Shown: positions 9,168 through 18,230 of the stretch, piece after piece
Layout of the letters: every line of letters starts with the position of its first letter
Numbering within the stretch: the stretch's first letter is position 1
Source: Alistipes sp.
GTDB lineage: Bacteria > Bacteroidota > Bacteroidia > Bacteroidales > Rikenellaceae
NCBI GenBank assembly: GCA_017517705.1
Contig: JAFWYM010000024.1
Span: forward strand, 9,800-73,799
Length of the DNA stretch: 64,000 nt
Direction of reading: 5' to 3'
The notes under the pieces: generated by a model
Seen by the model: the letters and a program-made list of their open reading frames with translations, nothing else
Told to the model about the DNA's origin: nothing
Databases searched by the model: none
Translations under genes and position numbers: made by a program

Positions 9168-9686
9168 ATGAAAAAGACAATTATACTTATCGGTTTAGGT
9201 GCGGCCTTCGTTGCGGTATCGGCGTGGGTAGCACTTAGTGGCGGGCGTAGCGCACGTGCCGTGCGCACGAAGTTCCGCTTAGGTGGTGCGATACTTACGA
9301 TTACGAGCGCCCTCACAGCGGCAAGCTGCGAAGGAGGCATTGGGGGCTTTATAACCTCCTGCTACGACCCAGTGATGCCACCACGCAATATGGTGTATGC
9401 CGACACAAAGATCGGCACCGAGCTACGTAATGGCGACATTGTCCCCATCACCATCTACAGCGAGTTTGCATCGGAGGGGTATATCTCACTCGAAAGCATA
9501 GAGGGCAAAGAGTTGCAGAGCTTAACTATTACACTGCCCGGAGATGGTGAGCACGACACCGTAGAGTTCACCATTGCTGTGGGCGACTATCGCGGTGAGG
9601 CCAAGTTGAAATCCTCATGCCAAGAGTGGGCGGACGACAAGGAGAACATACAGAGTGGCAGTATTGACATCGTAATAGTGGATTAA
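9168..9686 (+). CDS. Hypothetical membrane protein or lipoprotein with a TSCYDP motif; putative radical SAM substrate
   Basis: N-terminal hydrophobic helix, a basic stretch (RSARAVRTKFR), a second hydrophobic stretch ending in lipobox-like AASC, then ITSCYDPVMPP; 1 nt from the rSAM gene. Confidence 0.7.
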   Translation: MKKTIILIGLGAAFVAVSAWVALSGGRSARAVRTKFRLGGAILTITSALTAASCEGGIGGFITSCYDPVMPPRNMVYADTKIGTELRNGDIVPITIYSEFASEGYISLESIEGKELQSLTITLPGDGEHDTVEFTIAVGDYRGEAKLKSSCQEWADDKENIQSGSIDIVIVD

Positions 9687-9687
9687 T

Positions 9688-10719
9688 ATGGTATGGTGGC
9701 GTAGAGATAGAGTAAAGCTTGGCGTTGCGGTATTCGAGCTGACGGATGCCTGCAATCAGGCGTGCAGGTTCTGCTACAACTACTTCAAGGGCGACGCAAG
9801 CCCCAGAGCCATAGCACCTCCCGACTACCGTCAGGCGCGCCATACGCTGAAGCAACTGCTCCGACAGGCCGAGATAGGCTCCATATCCTTCTCCGGTGGC
9901 GAACCCATGCTTATGCCCAAGGTTCACGACCTCGCACTCAAAGCGCGCTTCGGTGGTGCCAATGTCAACATACTGACAAATGGAACTCTCCTCACGGAGA
10001 ACGATATAGCCATCTTCAACGATATAGGCATAGGCAAGATGCAGATACCCATCCTTGCTGACTGTGCCACCATCCACGACAGTATCACGCAGCGCGTGGG
10101 CACGTGGGAGAGGGCCATGCGTGCGGCACGCAACGTGGCAGCAACAAAGGGCGAGTGGCTCGTACCCGTAATGATACTCAGCCGCTTGAACATAGAGCGC
10201 ATCGAGGCAACAATGGTATTATACAAGGAGCTGGGTGCAAGCCTCGTGATGGTCAACCGCTTCAACATCGGTGGTCTGGGCAAGCATCACACCGCGGAAC
10301 TAAGCCTCAGCCACGAGGAGCTGCGCGATGCCTTCCGCCGTGTCGACAAGAGTGCGGGAGAGCTTGGCATGAAGGTTCATAGCGGGGTATGTACGCCAAT
10401 GTGCATCCTCGACCCTCGGGAGTACCCCAACATTATGTTTACGCACTGCTCCACGGACTTCAGCCAGCGACCACTAACGATAAACTATCGTGGCGAGGTG
10501 CGCTTCTGCAACCACTCGCCACGCATATTGGGCAATATACACGAAGAGAGTCTCGGCAGCATCATAGAGCGCGCCAACGGCGACAGCTATTTTGCCACCA
10601 CACCCTCACGATGTGCCGACTGCAAGCTATGGGAGCGGTGCCGCGGAGGATGTCGCGCGGCAGCCGAACAGCTATACGGCACCTTCGACAGAGCCGACCC
10701 CGTAATGGATATTACGTAA
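9688..10719 (+). CDS. Radical SAM/SPASM-domain protein (rSAM-A)
   Basis: CNQACRFC (CxxxCxxC), SGGEP, LTNG; SPASM-type cysteines THCST...EVRFC and CADCKLWERCRGGC. Confidence 0.92.
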   Translation: MVWWRRDRVKLGVAVFELTDACNQACRFCYNYFKGDASPRAIAPPDYRQARHTLKQLLRQAEIGSISFSGGEPMLMPKVHDLALKARFGGANVNILTNGTLLTENDIAIFNDIGIGKMQIPILADCATIHDSITQRVGTWERAMRAARNVAATKGEWLVPVMILSRLNIERIEATMVLYKELGASLVMVNRFNIGGLGKHHTAELSLSHEELRDAFRRVDKSAGELGMKVHSGVCTPMCILDPREYPNIMFTHCSTDFSQRPLTINYRGEVRFCNHSPRILGNIHEESLGSIIERANGDSYFATTPSRCADCKLWERCRGGCRAAAEQLYGTFDRADPVMDIT

Positions 10720-10934: not shown

Positions 10935-11390
10935 ATGAAGAGGTTGATATATTTTTTAATGACGCTTCTGGGCTTTGGCGCATCGGGGTGTGCCTATCAG
11001 GCTCCTATAGATGATGTGGTTGCCGAGTATGGCTGTCCGCATGTTGAGTTCCACCTCTCGGCACGTGTCGTAGATGAGACCGGAACACCGATCAAGGGCA
11101 TCGAAGTATACTGCGATGGCATACCCTTGGGCTACGAAAACAACACCTCGGATAGCGAGGGTAACATAAACGTTGTCGATGCCTACGTATGGCCTGGGGC
11201 ACAGTTCGAGGTGGAGTTTGTCGACCCTGATGGGATGGAGAATGGTGGCGACTTCGAGACTCTCACGCTCGACATCACCGACAAGGTTGAGCAGGTAGAG
11301 GAGAGTAGCGGCAACTGGTACGGGGGTGGCTTCCGCGCTGAGCTTGGCGAGGTTACACTTCACAAAAAAGATAGTGAGGTAAACAACTAA
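10935..11390 (+). CDS. Radical SAM-associated putative lipoprotein 1 (TIGR04134-like)
   Basis: Signal peptide with lipobox ASGC; AEYGCP, RVVDETGTPIKGIEV, FVDPDGMENGGDF, C-terminal LGEVTL; paralog of the next two genes. Confidence 0.8.
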   Translation: MKRLIYFLMTLLGFGASGCAYQAPIDDVVAEYGCPHVEFHLSARVVDETGTPIKGIEVYCDGIPLGYENNTSDSEGNINVVDAYVWPGAQFEVEFVDPDGMENGGDFETLTLDITDKVEQVEESSGNWYGGGFRAELGEVTLHKKDSEVNN

Positions 11391-11403
11391 TAATAAAACG
11401 ATT

Positions 11404-11844
11404 GTGAAACGATTGATCTATTTTCTGATGGCGATGCTCGGCTTCGGTGCAGTTAGTTGTGAAGAACTTGAAGGGGGCGGTAATTTGGATGCCTATGGCA
11501 CGCCGTACTCTGTGTTTAGGGTATCGCTGCGCGTAGTCGATGGCGAGAGAAATCCCATCCCGGGCATTCAGGTATCTGCGAAAAATGACTACAACACCAA
11601 GCCCCTCGCGACAACAAACGAGGAGGGTCGCCTGGAGGGCACATATAACAGTGTTTCGACGATGAATTACATCAATTTCTTGGATACTGATGGTGAGGCC
11701 AATGGCGGCTGGTTCGAGCCTCTGTCGATGAACGTTGGCGATAAGATCGTAAAGGTTAAGGATGGCGAAGGCTGGTGTAGAGGCGAGTATGAAGTGACGC
11801 TCGGCGACGTCACCTTAGATCTAAAAGGAGGAGAGCACAAATAA
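11404..11844 (+). CDS. Radical SAM-associated putative lipoprotein 2 (TIGR04134-like)
   Basis: GTG start; lipobox AVSC; DAYGTP, RVVDGERNPIPGIQV, FLDTDGEANGGWF, LGDVTL. Confidence 0.8.
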   Translation: MKRLIYFLMAMLGFGAVSCEELEGGGNLDAYGTPYSVFRVSLRVVDGERNPIPGIQVSAKNDYNTKPLATTNEEGRLEGTYNSVSTMNYINFLDTDGEANGGWFEPLSMNVGDKIVKVKDGEGWCRGEYEVTLGDVTLDLKGGEHK

Positions 11845-11862
11845 CGAATAAACAATACAGCT

Positions 11863-12216
11863 ATGTCACTTATTGGCAAGATTTTAACACGACTATTTGC
11901 ACTCTTTGGGATGACCCTCACGTGCGTGGCGTGCTACGGCATCCCCGAGGCGGAGTTTCACCCTGAGTTTGGAGCTTCGGGGCGCGTTGTGGACCCCGAG
12001 GGTAATGGCATCGAGGGCATCGAGGTGTCGATTGAGAGATCGGTCACAACCTCCGACCAGAGTGGCTGGTTTTATATCGACGGCGACACCCCCGAGGTGC
12101 TCTTCCGCGACATCGATGGCGAGGCTCATGGCGGGGAGTTCGAGGAGCTGAGGATAGAGATAGGGACGGTGAACAACGTCGTCGAGCTCGGCGACGTGGA
12201 ACTAAAGCGCAAGTAG
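11863..12216 (+). CDS. Radical SAM-associated putative lipoprotein 3 (TIGR04134-like, short form)
   Basis: Signal peptide ending LTCVAC followed by YGIP; RVVDPEGNGIEGIEV, FRDIDGEAHGGEF, LGDVEL. Confidence 0.78.
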   Translation: MSLIGKILTRLFALFGMTLTCVACYGIPEAEFHPEFGASGRVVDPEGNGIEGIEVSIERSVTTSDQSGWFYIDGDTPEVLFRDIDGEAHGGEFEELRIEIGTVNNVVELGDVELKRK

Positions 12217-12220
12217 GTGT

Positions 12221-13297
12221 ATGGGCAAGCGATTAGGTGTGCGCCAATGGATTGCGCTCAAGCTATTCAAGAAGTTACGACAGATACGTCGAGAGGAGCA
12301 TGTGCTCAACACGCTCTTCTGGGAGTGTACGTTGCGCTGCAACCTCAAGTGCCGCCACTGTGGTAGCGACTGCACGGTAGACCCCGCGATGAAGGATATG
12401 CCTGCCAAGGATTTCTTTCGTGTCTTAGACAACGAGATTACGCCCCACGTAAACCCCAATAAGGTGCTCATCATCCTCTCGGGTGGCGAGGTTCTCGTGC
12501 GCAAGGATCTCGAGGAGATAGGCATCAACCTCTACCGTCGTGGCTATCCGTGGGGTATGGTCACAAATGGTCTCGGCCTCACGCGCGAGAGGCTCAACTC
12601 GCTCATACGCTCGGGTCTGCACTCCATAACAGTGTCGCTCGATGGCTTCGAAGAAGAGCACCTCCACATACGTCAACATCGCGATAGCTTCGCACGTGCC
12701 GTAGAGGCTGTGCGCATGATCTCGGCAGATAAGGAGCTCGCCTCGGATGTGGTCACCTGCGTGACTCCCGCCCTTATGCCTAAGCTCGCGGAGTTCAAGG
12801 AGTTTCTCTACTCGCTCGGTGTGCGTCGCTGGCGACTATTCACCATCTTTCCCGTAGGCCGTGCCGCTGCCGATCCCACGCTGCAACTCAACGACGAAGA
12901 GTTTACCGCGCTGATGCAGTTTATCGAGACAACACGCAAGGAGGGACGTATCATGGCGTCGTACGGCTGCGAGGGCTTCCTTGGTGGCTATGAGATGCGT
13001 GTGAGGACAAACCCCTTTGAGTGCTATGCGGGCGTTGGCGTGGCGTCGATACGCGTCAATGGCGACATCTCGGGATGTACGAGCGTGAGGGCCAACTTCA
13101 CGCAGGGCAACATCTACCGCGACAACTTCTGGGATGTATGGCAAAACCGCTTTGAGAAGTTCCGCAACCGCGCGTGGGCTAAGCGTGGCAAGTGCGCCGA
13201 GTGTAAGATGTGGCAGTACTGCGAAGGTAACGGCATGCACCTCTACGACGACGATGGCAACCTGCTGGTATGCCACTATCAGCGACTACGCAGATAG
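12221..13297 (+). CDS. Radical SAM/SPASM enzyme, rSAM/lipoprotein system (TIGR04133-like; rSAM-B)
   Basis: CNLKCRHC, SGGE, MVTNG; SPASM-type CYAG...GDISGC and CAECKMWQYCEGNGMH; lies directly after three lipoprotein genes. TIGR assignment is from memory, not searched. Confidence 0.88.
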   Translation: MGKRLGVRQWIALKLFKKLRQIRREEHVLNTLFWECTLRCNLKCRHCGSDCTVDPAMKDMPAKDFFRVLDNEITPHVNPNKVLIILSGGEVLVRKDLEEIGINLYRRGYPWGMVTNGLGLTRERLNSLIRSGLHSITVSLDGFEEEHLHIRQHRDSFARAVEAVRMISADKELASDVVTCVTPALMPKLAEFKEFLYSLGVRRWRLFTIFPVGRAAADPTLQLNDEEFTALMQFIETTRKEGRIMASYGCEGFLGGYEMRVRTNPFECYAGVGVASIRVNGDISGCTSVRANFTQGNIYRDNFWDVWQNRFEKFRNRAWAKRGKCAECKMWQYCEGNGMHLYDDDGNLLVCHYQRLRR

Positions 13298-13647: not shown

Positions 13648-14130
13648 ATGAAAAAGATTATGTTTTTGATGCTCGCCCTCTTCGTGGGCTTCAGCGCATC
13701 GGCACAGTCAATGCCCGACGTAAAGGTTGAGAACCAGGAGGGTAAGATTATCTCTACACGCGACTTGGTGGATGGCACACCTATGATCATCTCATTCTGG
13801 TCGACAACGTGCAAGCCCTGCATCATGGAGCTTAACGCCATCAACGACAACCTCTACGACTGGCTCGAGGAGGTAGACATGAAGGTTGTTGCCGTATCTG
13901 TTGACGATGCACGTGCCATCAGCCGTGCCCGCGCGATGACACAGGGTCAGGGCTGGGACGACTATACATGTATCTACGACAAGAACCAGGACTTCAAGCG
14001 CGCCATGAACGTGAGCCTCACGCCCCACACCTTCATCGTTGACGGCAAGGGTAACGTGGTATACTCTCACTCGGGCTACACTCCCGGTAGCGAGCAGGAG
14101 CTCTTTGAGAAGATCAAGGCGTTGAAATAG
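13648..14130 (+). CDS. Exported TlpA/AhpC-TSA-like thioredoxin-fold disulfide reductase
   Basis: Signal peptide (ASA-Q), SFWSTTCKPC (CxxC), cis-Pro region LTPHTFIVD. Confidence 0.9.
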   Translation: MKKIMFLMLALFVGFSASAQSMPDVKVENQEGKIISTRDLVDGTPMIISFWSTTCKPCIMELNAINDNLYDWLEEVDMKVVAVSVDDARAISRARAMTQGQGWDDYTCIYDKNQDFKRAMNVSLTPHTFIVDGKGNVVYSHSGYTPGSEQELFEKIKALK

Positions 14131-14204
14131 TTGCAATGCGAGCAGATGTGGCAGCCGAGTGTTGCCACCTCTGCTTTGAACATTAATCGAAAAAACTTTA
14201 CGGA

Positions 14205-15905
14205 ATGAAGAAATTTTTACTCACATTTAGCATAGTTGTTGCATCTATGTTCGCCGCCGAGGAGGCTGCAGCGCAGATCAAGGCCGGCGAGGGTCAGGTG
14301 TCGATATCGTTGGAGAGTAACAATATCTTGTACTTCAACGACAAGAACCTCATAGAGTTCAACAGCAAAAACGAGCGCGAGAAGCCCTTTGGATCTATCG
14401 ACTACCTAAAGGTTGACTACTCGAAGGGACGCTTCTCGGCAGGTGTGCAGATTGACGGTTACCTGCCCTCACTCAGCGGTTACGACATCACCGAGTACCA
14501 AAAATCGCAGCTTCAGGGCTTTGGCGATAAGGCTACGCCCGTAACGGCATTCTTCACCAAGTATATCCAGTGGGAGGATCAGAACTGGGGTGTGCGCCTT
14601 GGCGATATATACGACCAGTTTGGCAATGGACTCATCTTCCGTGCATACGAGGAGCGCGCCTTGGCCTTCAACAATGCGTTGGCAGGTGCCCGCGCATACT
14701 ACAACCTCAACAACTATTTTAACGTGAAGGTTGTTGCCGGTATGCCTCGCTTGTACGATATGCGCGTACCCAACTGGATCTATGGTGCCGACCTCTCGCT
14801 CTCGCTCTCGGATATCATCGGCTGGAACAATGGCTTGGTGTCGGTTGAGGGTAGCTACGTGGGTCGCAACCAGAAAGATGCAACAAAGTTGGGATTGGAG
14901 AGCGACTACCTCAATATGCTCTCTGGCCGCCTAAACTTCGAGACTGCAGGTTTCACCTTCCGTGGTGAGTATGTGGCAAAGTTGAACGAGGATATCCACA
15001 ATCGCATGTGGCCGGCAAGCAAGGGTCACGTGGCACACGTCGACCTCGGCTACAACTACAAGCGTTTCTCAGCCTCTGCCACATTCCGCTATCAGAAGAA
15101 CATGAACACCCCGATATTGGTCTCGATGAATAACCTCTATGGCGGTAATGTTATGAGCTACATTCCGTTGCTCACACGCCAGCATACATATATGCTTGCT
15201 AACCTCAATCCCTACCGTGGCACTACGGTATTTACCGCGGGTGAGATTGGCGGTCAGGCCGACGTCTACTACTCGTTGCGCAACAAGAAGGCTCGTGGCA
15301 AGTATTGGAACTTCCACGCCAACATCTCTGTGTTTAACACCATAAAGCACAAGATGAATGGTAAAGGCAAAACGATTGATGGCCGTAATGCCTGGATCGA
15401 CTTCAACTTCGATGTTGAGCGACAGTGGAACAAGAGCCTCAAGACAACATTCCTCTACTCATTCCAGCGTTGGGACGAGTCTCTCAACCACTGGGACTCG
15501 GAGGCGATCTCTGCAGAGTATTGCGCTTCGCACATCTTCGTGGGCGATGTAACATATAAGTTTAACAAGAAGCACTCGTTGCGTGTCGAGGCTCAGTACC
15601 TTGCCTCTGACGACTACGAGGGCGACTGGGTAGCAGGCTTGGTAGAGTATAACTTTGCACCTATGTTCAGTTTCTACGTTAGCGATATGTGGAACTGCGA
15701 AAAGATGGAGGCGAACTACAACTCTAACACCGACAAGAACTACCTACTCCACTACTATCAGGTGGGTATGACATTCACACACAGCCACTACAGAGCACAG
15801 TTGGCATACGGTCGTAATCGTGCCGGTTACGTATGTTCGGGAGGTGCATGTCGCTACCAGCCCGCATATACGGGTGTAAACCTTGCGCTAACTATTACAT
15901 TCTAA
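14205..15905 (+). CDS. Outer-membrane beta-barrel protein (DUF6029-like) with a C-terminal CSGGAC motif
   Basis: Signal peptide, alternating amphipathic strands, terminal Phe (NLALTITF), GYVCSGGACRYQP near the C-terminus. Family name from memory. Confidence 0.75.
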   Translation: MKKFLLTFSIVVASMFAAEEAAAQIKAGEGQVSISLESNNILYFNDKNLIEFNSKNEREKPFGSIDYLKVDYSKGRFSAGVQIDGYLPSLSGYDITEYQKSQLQGFGDKATPVTAFFTKYIQWEDQNWGVRLGDIYDQFGNGLIFRAYEERALAFNNALAGARAYYNLNNYFNVKVVAGMPRLYDMRVPNWIYGADLSLSLSDIIGWNNGLVSVEGSYVGRNQKDATKLGLESDYLNMLSGRLNFETAGFTFRGEYVAKLNEDIHNRMWPASKGHVAHVDLGYNYKRFSASATFRYQKNMNTPILVSMNNLYGGNVMSYIPLLTRQHTYMLANLNPYRGTTVFTAGEIGGQADVYYSLRNKKARGKYWNFHANISVFNTIKHKMNGKGKTIDGRNAWIDFNFDVERQWNKSLKTTFLYSFQRWDESLNHWDSEAISAEYCASHIFVGDVTYKFNKKHSLRVEAQYLASDDYEGDWVAGLVEYNFAPMFSFYVSDMWNCEKMEANYNSNTDKNYLLHYYQVGMTFTHSHYRAQLAYGRNRAGYVCSGGACRYQPAYTGVNLALTITF

Positions 15906-15933
15906 CGAACAATAATTTAACCTGATTATAACA

Positions 15934-17022
15934 ATGAAAATCACAAAGTTTTTGGCGCTTATATGCGCTATGGCAACCCTCTTTGTTGGTTGCGAGGGTA
16001 ACGGCGGTGACGAGAACTCAGCCACAGGCAATGCGGTACTTACCGCCGATAAGGATGTTGCCGTTATGGGCGAGCCCATCACCTTCACCGTGACAAGCGA
16101 GGGTGCGGATGTTACTGCCGAGGCTAAGATATACAACAAGGCAACATACAAGGAGGTGAGCAACCCTTTCGTGAGTGATGTAGATGGTAAGTATGAGTTC
16201 TATGCCGTATATGGCACGTCTATTACGAAGAGCATCGAAATCTCTGTTGTACCCTCAATCCCCGTACTCCCTGAGGATGAGGAGCCCACAAATACGACAT
16301 TCAACCACCGCATTCTCTTGGTTGACCACACGGGTACGAAGTGTGGCTATTGCCCACAGATGATGGCTGCACTCCGCAAGGTTGCTGCCGACGACAATTA
16401 TCACGACAAATTCTACGAGGCTATGGCGCACACCTACAATAGCGACGACCCCTCGTGGTCGCGCTCTGCAGAGGTTGTCACATCGCACTATGGTAGCCTT
16501 ATTAATGGTTATCCCTCGCTCACATTCAACTTCTACCACCCTATTCCGGGCGAGAGAAATGACAAGAGCATCAAGTTGCAGATCGACGCATTGTGGAAGG
16601 CTGATGGTGCCGATGCAGGTGTGATGGCAGCCGCGACAGGTGGCAATACCATGGTAGCTGTGAAGGCCCAGGTTAAGGCAAAGGTAGCCGGCGACTATCG
16701 TGTAACAGCTTGGCTGTTGGAGGATAATATCTATGCGCAGCAAGCTGGCACTACAGACGAGTCATACTACACACATAACAACTCTATCCGCCATATTGCC
16801 ATATCTAATCCTATCACAGGCTTCGACCTCGGCACCATCGAGGCCGGTGCAACAGCCGAGAAGGAGATGGCCTTGGAGATTCAGAGCCTAAAGTGGGCAA
16901 ACGAGAACCTCAAGGTTATGGTTATCGCCACGGTATACAATAGCAGCACCAAAAATTATGACGTAGCGAACATCGCCATCTGCCCCATCAACGGCTCGGT
17001 TAAGTACGACTACAAGAAGTAA
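15934..17022 (+). CDS. Omp28-related thioredoxin-like outer-membrane lipoprotein 1
   Basis: Lipobox FVGC; ILLVDHTGTKCGYCP, GYPS cis-Pro, WLLEDNI, HNNSIR. Confidence 0.85.
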   Translation: MKITKFLALICAMATLFVGCEGNGGDENSATGNAVLTADKDVAVMGEPITFTVTSEGADVTAEAKIYNKATYKEVSNPFVSDVDGKYEFYAVYGTSITKSIEISVVPSIPVLPEDEEPTNTTFNHRILLVDHTGTKCGYCPQMMAALRKVAADDNYHDKFYEAMAHTYNSDDPSWSRSAEVVTSHYGSLINGYPSLTFNFYHPIPGERNDKSIKLQIDALWKADGADAGVMAAATGGNTMVAVKAQVKAKVAGDYRVTAWLLEDNIYAQQAGTTDESYYTHNNSIRHIAISNPITGFDLGTIEAGATAEKEMALEIQSLKWANENLKVMVIATVYNSSTKNYDVANIAICPINGSVKYDYKK

Positions 17023-17063
17023 TAAGTATAATCAGAATAAATCACTTAAAACTATTTATAACA

Positions 17064-18230
17064 ATGAAAATCACAAAGTTTTTCGCACTTATGTGTGCAG
17101 CTGCAGCCTTCGCTTTGGCAGGCTGCGAGGGCATCGAGGGTCCGTCTAATGACGGCGACAACAATGGTGGCAACAACAATGGCGGCAACAACAATGGCGG
17201 TGGAAACACTACCAGCGACCTCGTCCTCTCGGCTGAGGAGACTACGATAGCTCTTGGCGAGGATATTGTTCTCAACGTAACCGAGGGCGGTGTAGATGTT
17301 ACATCGGCAAGTGACTGCGTTATATACGACTACAAGACTATGGAGCCTGTCACAGGCAGCACACTGACACCCGACTCAACTGGTGTATACTCATTCTTCG
17401 CAACTAAGGGAAGCAAGTCATCTAACACGTTGTATGTAACCGTTTTGGCTAATGTTCCCACTCTTCCCGAGGATACAGATGCTGCAAATACCAAGTTCAA
17501 CCACCGTATCCTTATTGTAGACCACACGGGTATTAACTGTGGTAACTGCCCTAATATGATGGATAATCTCCTTGCATTGCACGATTCAGCGTGGAAAAAC
17601 AGCTACAATGAGGTAGCTTGCCACGGTGGTGGTTACGCTAATGGCGACCCCGCACGATCAGCCGCCGCAGCTGTTGTCGACGACTTCTACACGCCTAGTG
17701 GATACCCTGTGCTCAACGTTAACTTCTACAATGGCGTTGTAGAGAACTATTCAGGAGATTACTTCTTAGAGCTTATAGGCGAGAAGTTTACACAGCTTAT
17801 CAAGAAGGATGGTGCTGATGCAGGTATCGCTATTGCAACTACAGGAGATTCCACGACTGTATATGCATCGGTAGCAGTTAAGGCAGCTGTTGAGGCTGAG
17901 TACAAGGTTACTGCTTGGTTGCTCGAGAACAACATCTATGGTAATCAGTATGGCGCTTCTGAGGACTACCACAGAATCTACAACCACGCGTTGCGCAATA
18001 TTGGCGGACCATACTCTAAGTCAGACCTCTCAGGTAACTCTGTTGGCATAATCAAGGCCGGTGAGACCGCCGAGACAGGTTTCGAGATGGAAGTAAAATC
18101 TGGCTGGAAGCACGAGAATATGGAAGTACTTGTAATCGTCAGCGCTAAGAATAAGTCTAACCGCTGGGAGGTTGTTAACACCGCTTTATGCCCTGTTAAC
18201 GAGTCTGTAGGCTTCGAGTACCTTCAGTAA
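17064..18230 (+). CDS. Omp28-related thioredoxin-like outer-membrane lipoprotein 2
   Basis: Lipobox LAGC; ILIVDHTGINCGNCP, SGYP, WLLENNI, YNHALR; tandem paralog of 15934-17022. Confidence 0.85.
   Translation: MKITKFFALMCAAAAFALAGCEGIEGPSNDGDNNGGNNNGGNNNGGGNTTSDLVLSAEETTIALGEDIVLNVTEGGVDVTSASDCVIYDYKTMEPVTGSTLTPDSTGVYSFFATKGSKSSNTLYVTVLANVPTLPEDTDAANTKFNHRILIVDHTGINCGNCPNMMDNLLALHDSAWKNSYNEVACHGGGYANGDPARSAAAAVVDDFYTPSGYPVLNVNFYNGVVENYSGDYFLELIGEKFTQLIKKDGADAGIAIATTGDSTTVYASVAVKAAVEAEYKVTAWLLENNIYGNQYGASEDYHRIYNHALRNIGGPYSKSDLSGNSVGIIKAGETAETGFEMEVKSGWKHENMEVLVIVSAKNKSNRWEVVNTALCPVNESVGFEYLQ
17154..17198 (+). repeat. 15-bp in-frame tandem repeat (3 copies) encoding a Gly/Asn linker
   Basis: GGCGACAACAATGGT, GGCAACAACAATGGC, GGCAACAACAATGGC, encoding GDNNG-GNNNG-GNNNG. 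Confidence 0.9.

Follow-up and report, generated by a model that had tools for sequence, protein, structure and literature searches.

The radical SAM enzyme rSAM-B and the three lipoprotein paralogs encoded directly upstream of it (P1, P2 and P3) form a tight operon in the window, the 64,000-nucleotide stretch of an Alistipes sp. contig analyzed here (Table 1). Comparisons across the NCBIfam family TIGR04133, to which rSAM-B belongs, indicate that an x-Tyr-Gly-x-Pro motif in these lipoproteins is very probably the target of the enzyme and that the Tyr-Gly dipeptide would be the site of catalysis. The assignment of the motif as target follows from the finding that the gene neighboring a TIGR04133 gene encodes a protein with a YG(x)P motif in 104 of 105 evaluable loci, whatever the architecture of that protein. 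For the reaction itself, our best reading, which we hold tentatively and at somewhat less than an even chance, is that P1–P3 are substrates of rSAM-B and that a tyramine equivalent is excised at the YG site.

Table 1. Features of the P1–P3/rSAM-B operon (window coordinates)
Feature	Position	Strand	Description
P1	10935-11390	+	151 aa; lipoprotein precursor; signal peptide MKRLIYFLMTLLGFGASG, lipobox Cys19, linker, motif, β-sandwich domain
P1 motif AEYGCP	11022-11039	+	residues 30-35; X = Glu31, then Tyr32, Gly33; candidate modification site
P2	11404-11844	+	146 aa; lipoprotein precursor; GTG start; lipobox Cys19
P2 motif DAYGTP	11488-11505	+	residues 29-34; X = Ala30; by translation
P3	11863-12216	+	117 aa; shorter paralog; N-terminus ...GMTLTCVAC-YGIP; Tyr25 straight after Cys24
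P3 motif ACYGIP	11929-11946	+	X = Cys24; by translation
rSAM-B	12221-13297	+	358 aa; radical SAM/SPASM enzyme

The four open reading frames lie on one strand, with gaps of 13 nt between P1 and P2, 18 nt between P2 and P3 and only 4 nt between P3 and rSAM-B. The three lipoproteins align with pairwise identities of 40–42%, P3 included, and Y32, G33 and P35 (P1 numbering) are unchanged among them. On the TIGR04134 profile, which has a cut-off of 39.8 bits, P1 and P2 score above it at 72.8 and 75.2 bits and P3 falls under it at 27.0 bits. Lipidation is predicted at lipoboxes ending in LLGFGASG-C19 (P1), LGFGAVS-C19 (P2) and LTCVA-C24 (P3), where Cys24 of P3 is probably either the lipidated residue itself or a Cys that follows the lipidated one by three residues. 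The original prediction had pointed to AEYGCP, DAYGTP and ACYGIP as a motif kept close to the lipid anchor in otherwise divergent paralogs, with the Tyr of the third directly following a Cys; translation bears out both statements and places the Tyr 13 and 12 residues past the lipobox Cys in P1 and P2 and right behind Cys24 in P3. In an AlphaFold2 model of P1 (mean pLDDT 84.5), residues 16–29 have pLDDT values below 50 and the strands begin at residue 36, the start of a β-sandwich domain (residues 36–141) with a predicted fold like that of transthyretin, CarboxypepD_reg and CnaB domains. Neither a PqqD-like open reading frame nor a PqqD-like Pfam match was found between positions 9168 and 13297, and the operon holds no RhaA-type helical leader. 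We rejected a downstream TlpA-like gene, a DUF6029 gene and two CxxC lipoprotein genes as parts of the system because none of them lies near TIGR04133 in the 109 other loci. A second radical SAM enzyme, rSAM-A, was likewise set aside as separate: a conserved partner of its own, which carries a Cys-Tyr motif, accompanies it, and outside the source lineage it occurs unlinked to TIGR04133.

The pairing of enzyme and lipoprotein is already catalogued in NCBIfam as the 'rSAM/lipoprotein system' TIGR04133 (rSAM/SPASM) and TIGR04134 (lipoprotein), both of them hypothetical equivalogs with neither target site nor chemistry in their definitions, and TIGR04134 homologs are named 'radical SAM-associated putative lipoprotein' in the source annotations. 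Literature searches on these two names, or on splicease together with lipoprotein, returned nothing relevant; the sole mention of TIGR04134 that we found refers, through a misprint, to a T9SS domain. The locus resembles the catalogued system in that the scores of rSAM-B, P1 and P2 exceed the curated cut-offs, enzyme and lipoprotein genes are neighbors and the paralogous lipoproteins stand in tandem upstream. It differs in that the set of partners found here is broader, extending to helical and disordered proteins, tiny lipopeptides and a few proteins without a lipobox. What is new is that, as judged from their sequences, YG(x)P alone unites the partners of TIGR04133 enzymes.

The survey behind this statement covered 110 TIGR04133 loci from 91 Bacteroidales species. 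The YG(x)P partner is encoded upstream and has a signal peptide in 100 of the 104 positive loci; in the other four it lies downstream, three of these partners having a signal peptide without the Cys and the fourth being a small open reading frame without an obvious signal peptide. The folds of the partners are unrelated, and include β-sandwich proteins, helical proteins (AAVYGSPEV), disordered proteins (VMYGVRVP) and lipopeptides of only 22–40 mature residues (KYGGPPxDY), in which nothing is conserved beyond K-Y-G-G-P-P-x-D-Y. The source genome itself holds a second TIGR04133 gene, whose partner lacks the β-sandwich and carries LMYGVPMPDG. The system occurs in 85–91 of 401 sampled Bacteroidales species and in 66 of 237 genera, and the laboratory strain Bacteroides thetaiotaomicron has both TIGR04133 and TIGR04134. 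Because YG(x)P follows TIGR04133 enzymes across unrelated architectures, the link between motif and enzyme is stronger than the three paralogs had suggested.

The original prediction depended on YG being conserved in the wider family, and it is. YG.P is present in 119 of 120 close homologs and the remaining one still has YG, and in the aligned columns of 131 representatives (50%-identity clusters) the Tyr is 99%, the Gly 98% and the Pro 98% conserved. Overall the Pro at Y+3 is ∼80–98% conserved, and partners without it exist (e.g. MYGALY, YGVRR and YGVDI). The residue X is variable (K, E, M, L, V, C or A) where YG is fixed, and it differs between paralogs in 12 of 20 loci with several partners. 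The distance from Cys to Tyr spans 1 to 74 residues, and the order C-Y-G-x-P seen in P3 is the rule where the enzyme belongs to clade 2 or 3 (AACYG.P, F[QE]ACYG.P). An aromatic residue is frequent at Y+7 (YGxPxxx[FY]), and in the β-sandwich class a further block, DxDGxxNGGxF, is invariant; it is absent from helical and disordered partners. At the N-terminus, the lipobox Cys is 95% and the signal-peptide Gly13 99% conserved among the representatives. Signal peptides are conserved by clade, with LGF in 34 of 87 clade-1 partners versus 4 of 280 background lipoprotein-like open reading frames. An acidic residue occurs at +2 to +6 after the Cys in 84% of family representatives, which as a pointer to a cell-surface location is only suggestive.

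The motif is also rare. YG.P occurs at 0.091 per 1000 residues in the source genome (open reading frames of at least 150 aa), and its occurrence in P1–P3 is far above chance. Among ∼399 lipoprotein-like N-termini, it was found no more than 70 residues from the Cys in P1, in the partner of the second system and in one evidently spurious open reading frame. This screen was crude, missing P2 (GTG start) and P3 though both carry the motif; the spurious frame aside, it returned no further lipoprotein-like open reading frame with YG.P in the source genome.

rSAM-B scores 586.2 bits on TIGR04133 against a cut-off of 425, covers profile positions 2–349 of 350, and matches the Pfam families Radical_SAM (PF04055) and SPASM (PF13186). 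Its CX3CX2C motif is formed by Cys40, Cys44 and Cys47, and nine more cysteines (51, 180, 250, 268, 286, 325, 328, 334 and 351) are kept in at least 108 of 110 family members, a pattern that points to auxiliary Fe–S clusters. On TIGR04103, the PlpX family model, rSAM-B reaches only 95.9 bits, where the cut-off is 725; this match ranks seventh among its NCBIfam matches and is not above its AhbD, NirJ or TIGR04053 scores. TIGR04133 enzymes of clades 2 and 3 score 72–122 bits on the same model. These scores place rSAM-B outside the PlpX family model. The proposal that rSAM-B acts at the YG site as a PlpX-type enzyme fared unevenly, gaining from the motif–enzyme link across unrelated partners and losing from the place of rSAM-B outside that model.

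Several features are shared with the tyramine spliceases (the type I systems PlpX/PlpY and PcpX/PcpY and the binary RhaX, RcsX and RasX). Both groups are radical SAM enzymes with SPASM domains, and in both the substrate carries an invariant Tyr-Gly after a variable residue (EYG, AYG and CYG here) and is encoded next to the enzyme. Some substrates have multiple sites, and whole proteins can be acted on by spliceases. Known spliceases act at XYG sites and can work on leaderless proteins (PMC11414181; PMC10533398). The splice tag of PlpA2, PIRP(L/G)YGLPI (PMC10533398), itself fits x-Y-G-x-P. Even true spliceases leave some YG sites alone, as with DYG in RcsA. The family of tyramine spliceases is IPR026482 (PMC11002830). 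The present system differs from them in lacking both a Y protein and a leader of the Nif11 or NHLP kind, in that its substrates are predicted to be Sec/SPII-exported lipoproteins with folded domains and not leader–core peptides, and in the nearly invariant Pro at Y+3. In type I spliceases the activating helix comes from a PqqD-like Y protein, in the binary types from the precursor leader; in the present system the conserved helical signal peptide might take that role. Degenerate-pattern scans of a collection of genome contigs for the PlpA2 and PlpA3 cores found no match.

The phylogenetic placement of rSAM-B leans toward TIGR04103-like enzymes. TIGR04133 is monophyletic (UFBoot 100) and, in two trees, joins 17 TIGR04103/TIGR03913-like SPASM enzymes (UFBoot 99; FastTree 0.999) to the exclusion of NirJ2/AhbD-, TIGR04053- and ACGX-like SPASM proteins and rSAM-A. 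These 17 sequences are Bacteroidota enzymes that stand in for proven spliceases in the trees, and none of them reaches the cut-off of TIGR04103, which we take to correspond to IPR026482. The third-best family of the TIGR04103-like enzymes in the trees is TIGR04133, at 155–184 bits. Two points, the proximity of TIGR04133 to TIGR04103-like enzymes and the free variation of X beside a fixed YG, speak for the original prediction, and splicease chemistry is plausible.

If P1, P2 and P3 are indeed substrates, the reaction could proceed as follows. As a cytoplasmic Fe–S radical SAM/SPASM protein, rSAM-B would have to act on the pre-lipoproteins while they are unfolded, ahead of Sec export and lipidation, for which anaerobic sulfatase-maturating enzymes (anSMEs) offer a parallel, exported sulfatases being handled likewise. 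The enzyme would read the linear x-Tyr-Gly-x-Pro segment just past the signal peptide, and we infer that the signal peptide (LLGF...C), whose conservation is unusual, may act as a docking helix in the manner of a leader. Hydrogen abstraction at the Tyr would lead to the loss of a tyramine equivalent (C8H9NO, −135.07 Da), with the carbonyl of X becoming bonded to the one that had belonged to the Tyr. An α-keto-β-amino amide would result, derived from Glu in P1, Ala in P2 and Cys in P3 and positioned in the tether between anchor and domain. Such a group might then act as an electrophilic warhead; its placement at the cell surface and a role in protease inhibition, both raised in the original prediction, are conjecture.

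It is a realistic possibility, though one short of an even chance, that rSAM-B alters the same Tyr-Gly by another radical reaction: a C–C or C–O cross-link of the Tyr (as in a triceptide cyclophane or a PqqE-like Glu-Tyr bond), β-hydroxylation, epimerization, or removal of the side chain by a Cα–Cβ lyase. The product in these cases might stiffen the tether or shield it from proteases. The motif–enzyme evidence is independent of the type of reaction, rSAM-B lies outside the TIGR04103 cut-off, and a model of an rSAM-B homolog resembles the structures of SkfB, SuiB, CteB, PqqE and anSME, so that the closest solved folds are those of cross-linking or oxidizing SPASM enzymes. Nor does XYG splicing explain the near-invariant Pro at Y+3 or the frequent aromatic residue at Y+7. 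Other observations speak against such reactions. PqqE, which is among both the sequence and the fold matches, and the triceptide and cyclophane synthases are likewise SPASM enzymes that act on an aromatic residue lying within a short motif, but TIGR04133 partners have no conserved residue with which the Tyr could be cross-linked: X, Y+2 and everything after the Pro vary. The KYGGPP lipopeptides have Gly at Y+2, which excludes an Ω-X-X(Cβ) triceptide link. Scores of rSAM-B and other TIGR04133 clades on the PqqE model are only 67–88 bits. The anSMEs (TIGR03942) also share features with rSAM-B, being SPASM enzymes, present in Bacteroides, that modify a short linear motif of proteins with signal peptides while these are in the cytoplasm and still to be exported, and the modeled rSAM enzyme superposes on anSME with a TM-score of 0.66–0.70 (normalized to anSME). 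The anSMEs oxidize the Cys or Ser of C/S-x-P-x-R to formylglycine. In contrast, x-Y-G-x-P contains no conserved Cys or Ser, C/S-x-P-x-R is absent from the partners, and the sequence family is a different one, with TIGR03942 not appearing among the best 25 NCBIfam matches of rSAM-B. Finally, the Pro is missing in MYGALY, YGVRR and YGVDI, which leaves Tyr-Gly as the sole strict invariant and is exactly what a splicease requires, and the trees lean to TIGR04103-like enzymes.

It is considerably less probable that YG(x)P and the signal peptide serve only for docking, with catalysis elsewhere in the partner or on the lipid-anchor Cys. Binding at one segment and modification of another is common among RiPP enzymes, in P3 and in clades 2 and 3 the motif sits directly beside the Cys, and the β-sandwich class has the DxDGxxNGGxF block as a second invariant element. 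However, this block is missing from helical and disordered partners, and the 22–40-residue partners conserve no residues outside the motif region at which catalysis could occur. The Cys, for its part, stands at no fixed offset from the motif, given a Cys–Tyr distance that ranges so widely. A structural or sorting role (capping the N-terminus of the domain, directing export or marking a protease site), in which the link to the radical SAM gene has no enzymatic meaning, is very improbable: the P1 motif does immediately precede strand 1 of the domain and a motif often stands ahead of each domain copy in multi-domain relatives, but it is duplicated by itself in linkers (e.g. PPMYGTPDMYGPLPVEYGTP) and missing from some tandem β-sandwich copies and is therefore not an element of the fold. 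We rejected the N-cap because motif and domain each occur without the other; the restriction of the motif to rSAM-adjacent lipoproteins in the source genome and its near-universal pairing with the enzyme also argue against a structural or sorting role.

Whichever reaction takes place, the probable target in a pair that had come without any proposed chemistry is narrowed to one invariant Tyr-Gly dipeptide. If tyramine splicing is correct, backbone editing to β-amino-acid and ketoamide units would no longer be confined to small secreted peptides but would reach lipoproteins that dominant gut bacteria export; the signal peptide would double as a leader, and protein engineers would gain compact natural splice tags as well as a new lineage of enzymes. 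If another reaction is responsible, Tyr in envelope proteins would undergo a post-translational modification of a new kind. The most far-reaching picture, which we consider unlikely in its entirety, is that roughly one in five Bacteroidales species, B. thetaiotaomicron among them, make lipid-anchored proteins and very small lipopeptides bearing an α-ketoamide that is genetically encoded and is installed by a distinct splicease lineage with the Sec/SPII signal peptide as its leader. The warhead side chain at X (Lys, Glu, Met, Cys or Ala) would be diversified among paralogs, to yield a panel of covalent protease inhibitors or attachment points tethered to the membrane at the gut-bacterial envelope.

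There are natural cases in which the lipoprotein and radical SAM genes are in frame and separated by a single stop codon. We modeled such a pair with AlphaFold2 as a lipoprotein–stop–rSAM read-through fusion, using a 42-row alignment with L172 as the first row. The mean pLDDT is 75 and the enzyme part is well folded, but the model gives no confident docking of the motif. The signal peptide helix has pLDDT values of only 49–70, and the partner, motif region included, lies at 25–49, with only residues 47–49, beside the YG, reaching at least 50. Isolated β-bridges are predicted at residues 48 and 52, on either side of M-Y-G.

P1, P2 and P3, the three lipoprotein paralogs that are the candidate substrates, and rSAM-B, the adjoining radical SAM/SPASM enzyme, are closely spaced (13, 18 and 4 nt in that order), with a gap of 215 nt between P1 and rSAM-A, a second such enzyme upstream. 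A scan for terminator-like sites on the + strand found none in the row from the 172-aa gene to rSAM-B. Because rSAM-B falls in TIGR04133, and P1 and P2 in the lipoprotein family TIGR04134, the pairing is one already catalogued in NCBIfam as a 'hypothetical equivalog', without a function. Pfam gave nothing on P1–P3 beyond weak CarboxypepD_reg-like signals. A literature search found no paper on the TIGR04133/TIGR04134 pairing, and the sole mention of TIGR04134 in literature text was a misprint.

Positions of the genes and motifs in the window
Feature	Position	Strand	Assignment or remark
172-aa membrane protein	9168-9686	+	
rSAM-A	9688-10719	+	Pfam Radical_SAM + SPASM
P1	10935-11390	+	TIGR04134 72.8 bits (cut-off 39.8)
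P1 motif AEYGCP	11022-11039	+	codons translated
P1 block D-x-D-G-x-x-N-G-G-x-F	11223-11255		P1 residues 97-107; equivalents in P2, P3
P2	11404-11844	+	TIGR04134 75.2 bits (cut-off 39.8)
P2 motif DAYGTP	11488-11505	+	codons translated
P3	11863-12216	+	TIGR04134 27 bits (cut-off 39.8)
P3 motif ACYGIP	11929-11946	+	codons translated
rSAM-B	12221-13297	+	TIGR04133 586 bits (cut-off 425); Pfam Radical_SAM + SPASM
TlpA-like thioredoxin-fold protein, DUF6029 protein (493 bits), two paralogous lipoproteins (CGYC, CGNC)	13648-18230		

The paralogs are 40–42% identical in pairs, and both alignment and codon translation bear out the original prediction that all three keep x-Tyr-Gly-x-Pro near the lipidated Cys, Y-G-x-P being invariant. 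The lipobox Cys and the Tyr are 13 residues apart in P1 and 12 in P2, and in P3 the Tyr does follow a Cys with no residue between. Tyr–Gly also proved to be conserved in the wider family: YG.P is present in 119 of 120 close homologs (source labels mostly Alistipes), the remaining one having YG only, and searching 1.8 billion cluster representatives with a profile returned 4954 relatives. Of the best 150 of these, the 131 single-domain ones show Tyr, Gly and Pro at 99, 98 and 98% in the aligned columns. Genome-wide, YG.P occurs at 0.091 per 1000 residues, and in a crude screen of ∼399 lipoprotein-like N-termini the only ORFs with it no more than 70 residues from the Cys were those adjoining a TIGR04133 gene and one that is evidently spurious.

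The AlphaFold2 model of P1 (mean pLDDT 84.5) has a helical signal peptide, a disordered linker (residues 16–29, pLDDT <50) and a beta-sandwich at residues 36–141, for which Foldseek returned transthyretin-, CarboxypepD_reg- and CnaB-like domains, with no function-specific match. In many relatives the linker repeats the motif in tandem, two or three times (e.g. PPMYGTPDMYGPLPVEYGTPHADF, TEMYGSPYPAPMYGSPYSDF and DEYGCPYMEYGCPNVHY), multi-domain relatives have it on some domain copies and lack it on others, and it is also present in partners without any beta-sandwich domain. The motif is therefore separable from the fold. The D-x-D-G-x-x-N-G-G-x-F block is conserved as strongly as YG in the 131 TIGR04134 representatives (97–100%, Phe 92%), along with a later Trp and Gly, is missing in the non-sandwich partners, and looks like a loop of the sandwich that binds a metal or ligand.

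Within the phylum, a sample of 401 genomes has TIGR04133 in Bacteroidales only. In that order it matches in 91 of 401 species (85 of them above the cut-off) and in 66 of 237 genera, and the control set includes a match in B. thetaiotaomicron. We gathered 110 TIGR04133 loci, five of them cut by contig ends, and sorted their enzymes by similarity into three groups (n = 66, 33 and 11). An upstream same-strand ORF encoding a signal peptide and then YG is present in 100 of the 105 evaluable loci; three have a downstream partner with a signal peptide ending ...IIAQ-YGAP, without Cys, one has a small downstream ORF with IYGPMP and LYGPPP, and one yielded no candidate YG partner. Partners were detected with simple signal-peptide regular expressions, so the tally of 100 + 4 of 105 could move by a few loci.

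The partner architectures at the surveyed loci are mutually unrelated, comprising TIGR04134 beta-sandwiches, helical proteins (motif AAVYGSPEVI), disordered proteins of 60–100 aa (VMYGVRVP...DSLPPV) and lipopeptides with only 22–40 mature residues (C-x4-6-KYGGPPxDY-). At a second TIGR04133 gene in the same genome (on another contig, C12, ∼135512–137045; locus L026, 1021–2556; 562 bits), the upstream partner is a 148-aa lipoprotein with helical repeats (GVPFPDGRxAIxMTEERAAEIMEMIK, twice), no beta-sandwich and LMYGVPMPDG beyond the lipobox, its gene being in frame with that of the enzyme with one TAA codon between. In group 1 the residue before Tyr, X, varies among K, E, M, L, V, C and A; the partners in groups 2 and 3 nearly all have Cys there (F[QE]ACYG[TAP]P or AACYG.P), the same arrangement as Cys-Tyr-Gly in P3. 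X differs between paralogs in 12 of 20 multi-partner loci. Pro occupies Y+3, the third position after Tyr, in ∼80% of all sites. Because the partners recur across loci and the other window genes do not, the system consists of a TIGR04133 enzyme and one or more YG(x)P proteins. The motif is very probably the site that the rSAM-B enzyme recognises and modifies, and comparative genomics could hardly tie the two together more firmly.

Two of the partner classes have further features. In other Bacteroidales genomes (L062, L072, L074-L076, L080, L084, L085, L088), up to five partner genes form an array upstream of one TIGR04133 gene; the lipopeptide precursors in these arrays, C-x(4-6)-K-Y-G-G-P-P-x-[DNSTE]-Y-[KQR] with a mature part of 22–40 residues, would yield RiPP-like products whose release falls to signal peptidase II instead of a leader protease. 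In human-gut and other metagenome contigs (L172, L174, L203, L208, L211), relatives of rSAM-B at 62–65% identity have disordered partners of 88–98 aa that share a second block, DSLPPV(A/L)EQP, ∼20 residues beyond VMYGV(R/P)xP.

Spliceases, which belong to the rSAM/SPASM enzymes, cut a tyramine equivalent (C8H9NO, 135.06 Da) out of XYG sites and leave an alpha-keto-beta-amino amide (PMC11414181, PMC10533398, PMC11002830), a reaction feasible on whole proteins (PMC10533398). Their sites follow the same logic as the motif of the TIGR04133 partners, with Tyr–Gly alone strictly fixed and X variable: PlpXY accepts MYG and LYG, and the PlpA2 tag, PIRPLYGLPI, is itself x-Y-G-x-P (PMC10533398). The genome-mining survey of Scott et al. 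(2022), as summarised in PMC10849128 and PMC10533398, looked beside every SPASM protein in the UniProt reference proteomes for YG-rich genes and reported 939 predicted systems, plus 27 characterised ones, from 189 genera. The PlpX family is IPR026482 (PMC11002830). The ketoamide products of spliceases inhibit serine and cysteine proteases.

TIGR04103, the PlpX-type splicease model, is presumably the same family as IPR026482. rSAM-B scores 95.9 bits on it against a cut-off of 725 and so is not a member, this score being about equal to its AhbD, NirJ and TIGR04053 scores; the group 2 and 3 enzymes score 72–122 bits. The earlier interpretation is partly supported, through the link between enzyme and motif (104 of 105 loci, with unrelated partners). 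Tyramine excision at Tyr–Gly is still our single best guess at the reaction, a tentative one. Close behind it, and also conceivable, is some other radical reaction on the Tyr of this site, which stays alive because Pro at Y+3 is near-invariant and rSAM-B lies outside TIGR04103; the absence of a conserved cross-link partner residue and the KYGGPP class, in which Y+2 is Gly, speak against its common cyclophane and thioether forms.

Kinship with the splicease lineage was addressed with trees. The best NCBIfam families of 17 Bacteroidota SPASM enzymes are TIGR04103 or TIGR03913 (200–530 bits), and the third-best is always TIGR04133 (155–184 bits). With FastTree (134 sequences) and IQ-TREE (LG+G4, 1000 ultrafast bootstraps, 50 sequences), TIGR04133 is monophyletic (0.90 and 100, respectively) and shares a strongly supported split with these 17 enzymes (0.999 and 99); NirJ2/AhbD-like, TIGR04053-like and ACGX-like SPASM proteins and rSAM-A are on the opposite side in both trees. 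TIGR04133 thus groups with the TIGR04103/TIGR03913-like enzymes, which stand in for proven spliceases in both trees; this is no placement among the latter. Since sampling was narrow and guided by HMM similarity, there is moderate support for TIGR04133 as kin to the splicease lineage. In another class of Bacteroidota (L139, L140), a 474-aa SPASM enzyme (TIGR03913, GDL-motif peptide maturase, 531 bits; TIGR04103, 424 bits) has in front of it a 58-aa peptide, MGIMMPYGAA...GDL..., with P-Y-G at the N-terminus and a helical C-terminal part, possibly a splicease-type pair with the core ahead of the recognition helix.

rSAM-B has the CX3CX2C motif and, besides, nine Cys that at least 108 of the 110 family members share, a set that fits SPASM-type auxiliary clusters, and the model of a homolog superposes on SkfB, SuiB, CteB, PqqE and anSME. 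Because such an enzyme would act in the cytoplasm and the partners bear Sec/SPII signal peptides, modification would be expected to come ahead of export. The same order is seen with anSME, which modifies proteins before export in anaerobic sulfatase maturation. The signal peptides of the partners are unusually conserved and clade-specific: LLGF and a 99%-conserved Gly13 in the TIGR04134 class, LGF in 34 of 87 group-1 partners versus 4 of 280 background lipoprotein-like ORFs of the genome, ...LFxFQAC in group 2 and ...TGSFSxxLAAC in group 3. This suggests, as a working hypothesis, that the signal peptide also serves as a docking 'leader', likened to the activating helix that spliceases require from a Y protein or leader (PMC11414181). 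In 84% of representatives at least one of the positions +2 to +6 counted from the Cys is acidic (in 44%, two or more are), a pattern compatible with the Bacteroidota surface-export signal, without proving it.

In many of 80 metagenomic relatives, the lipoprotein and rSAM genes are in frame with a single stop codon between. AlphaFold was run on an 88-aa partner of the VMYGVRVP type joined to its own enzyme, with an alignment of 11 read-through fusions and 31 further rSAM homologs. The enzyme part is well folded and the partner has pLDDT 25–49, with only residues 47–49 at 50 or more; isolated beta-bridges at residues 48 and 52 flank M49-Y50-G51, in a model read from its pLDDT and secondary structure, neither of which speaks to docking.

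The TlpA-like, DUF6029 and CxxC-lipoprotein genes downstream were rejected as parts of the system because 350 nt separate rSAM-B from the next gene and none of them is near TIGR04133 in the 109 other loci, where the 172-aa gene does not recur either. Positions 9168–10719 probably hold a second, separate rSAM–substrate pair. rSAM-A is a generic SPASM enzyme (best NCBIfam matches ∼94 bits, far under the cut-offs). The protein that always precedes it (∼170–250 aa) has a TM helix, then a basic loop and another hydrophobic stretch, followed by a Cys-Tyr that is invariant and mostly reads C-Y-D/E (SCYDPVMPP in the window; MCYDTVA, TCYDMPAQ, TCYDVQMPPPPP, NCYDVPEYD and TCYEPAQE in relatives). Of 200 other Bacteroidales species, 12 have an rSAM-A homolog, mostly without TIGR04133 linkage; in close relatives, the pair is directly upstream of the rSAM-B homolog. 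Gene order is fluid among close relatives (L150-L162, rSAM-B 84–88% identical): the lipoprotein genes are upstream of the 172-aa/rSAM-A pair in L150-L152, where rSAM-A abuts rSAM-B, and between rSAM-A and rSAM-B in L157 and the window, and L156 and L162 have no rSAM-A within 3 kb.
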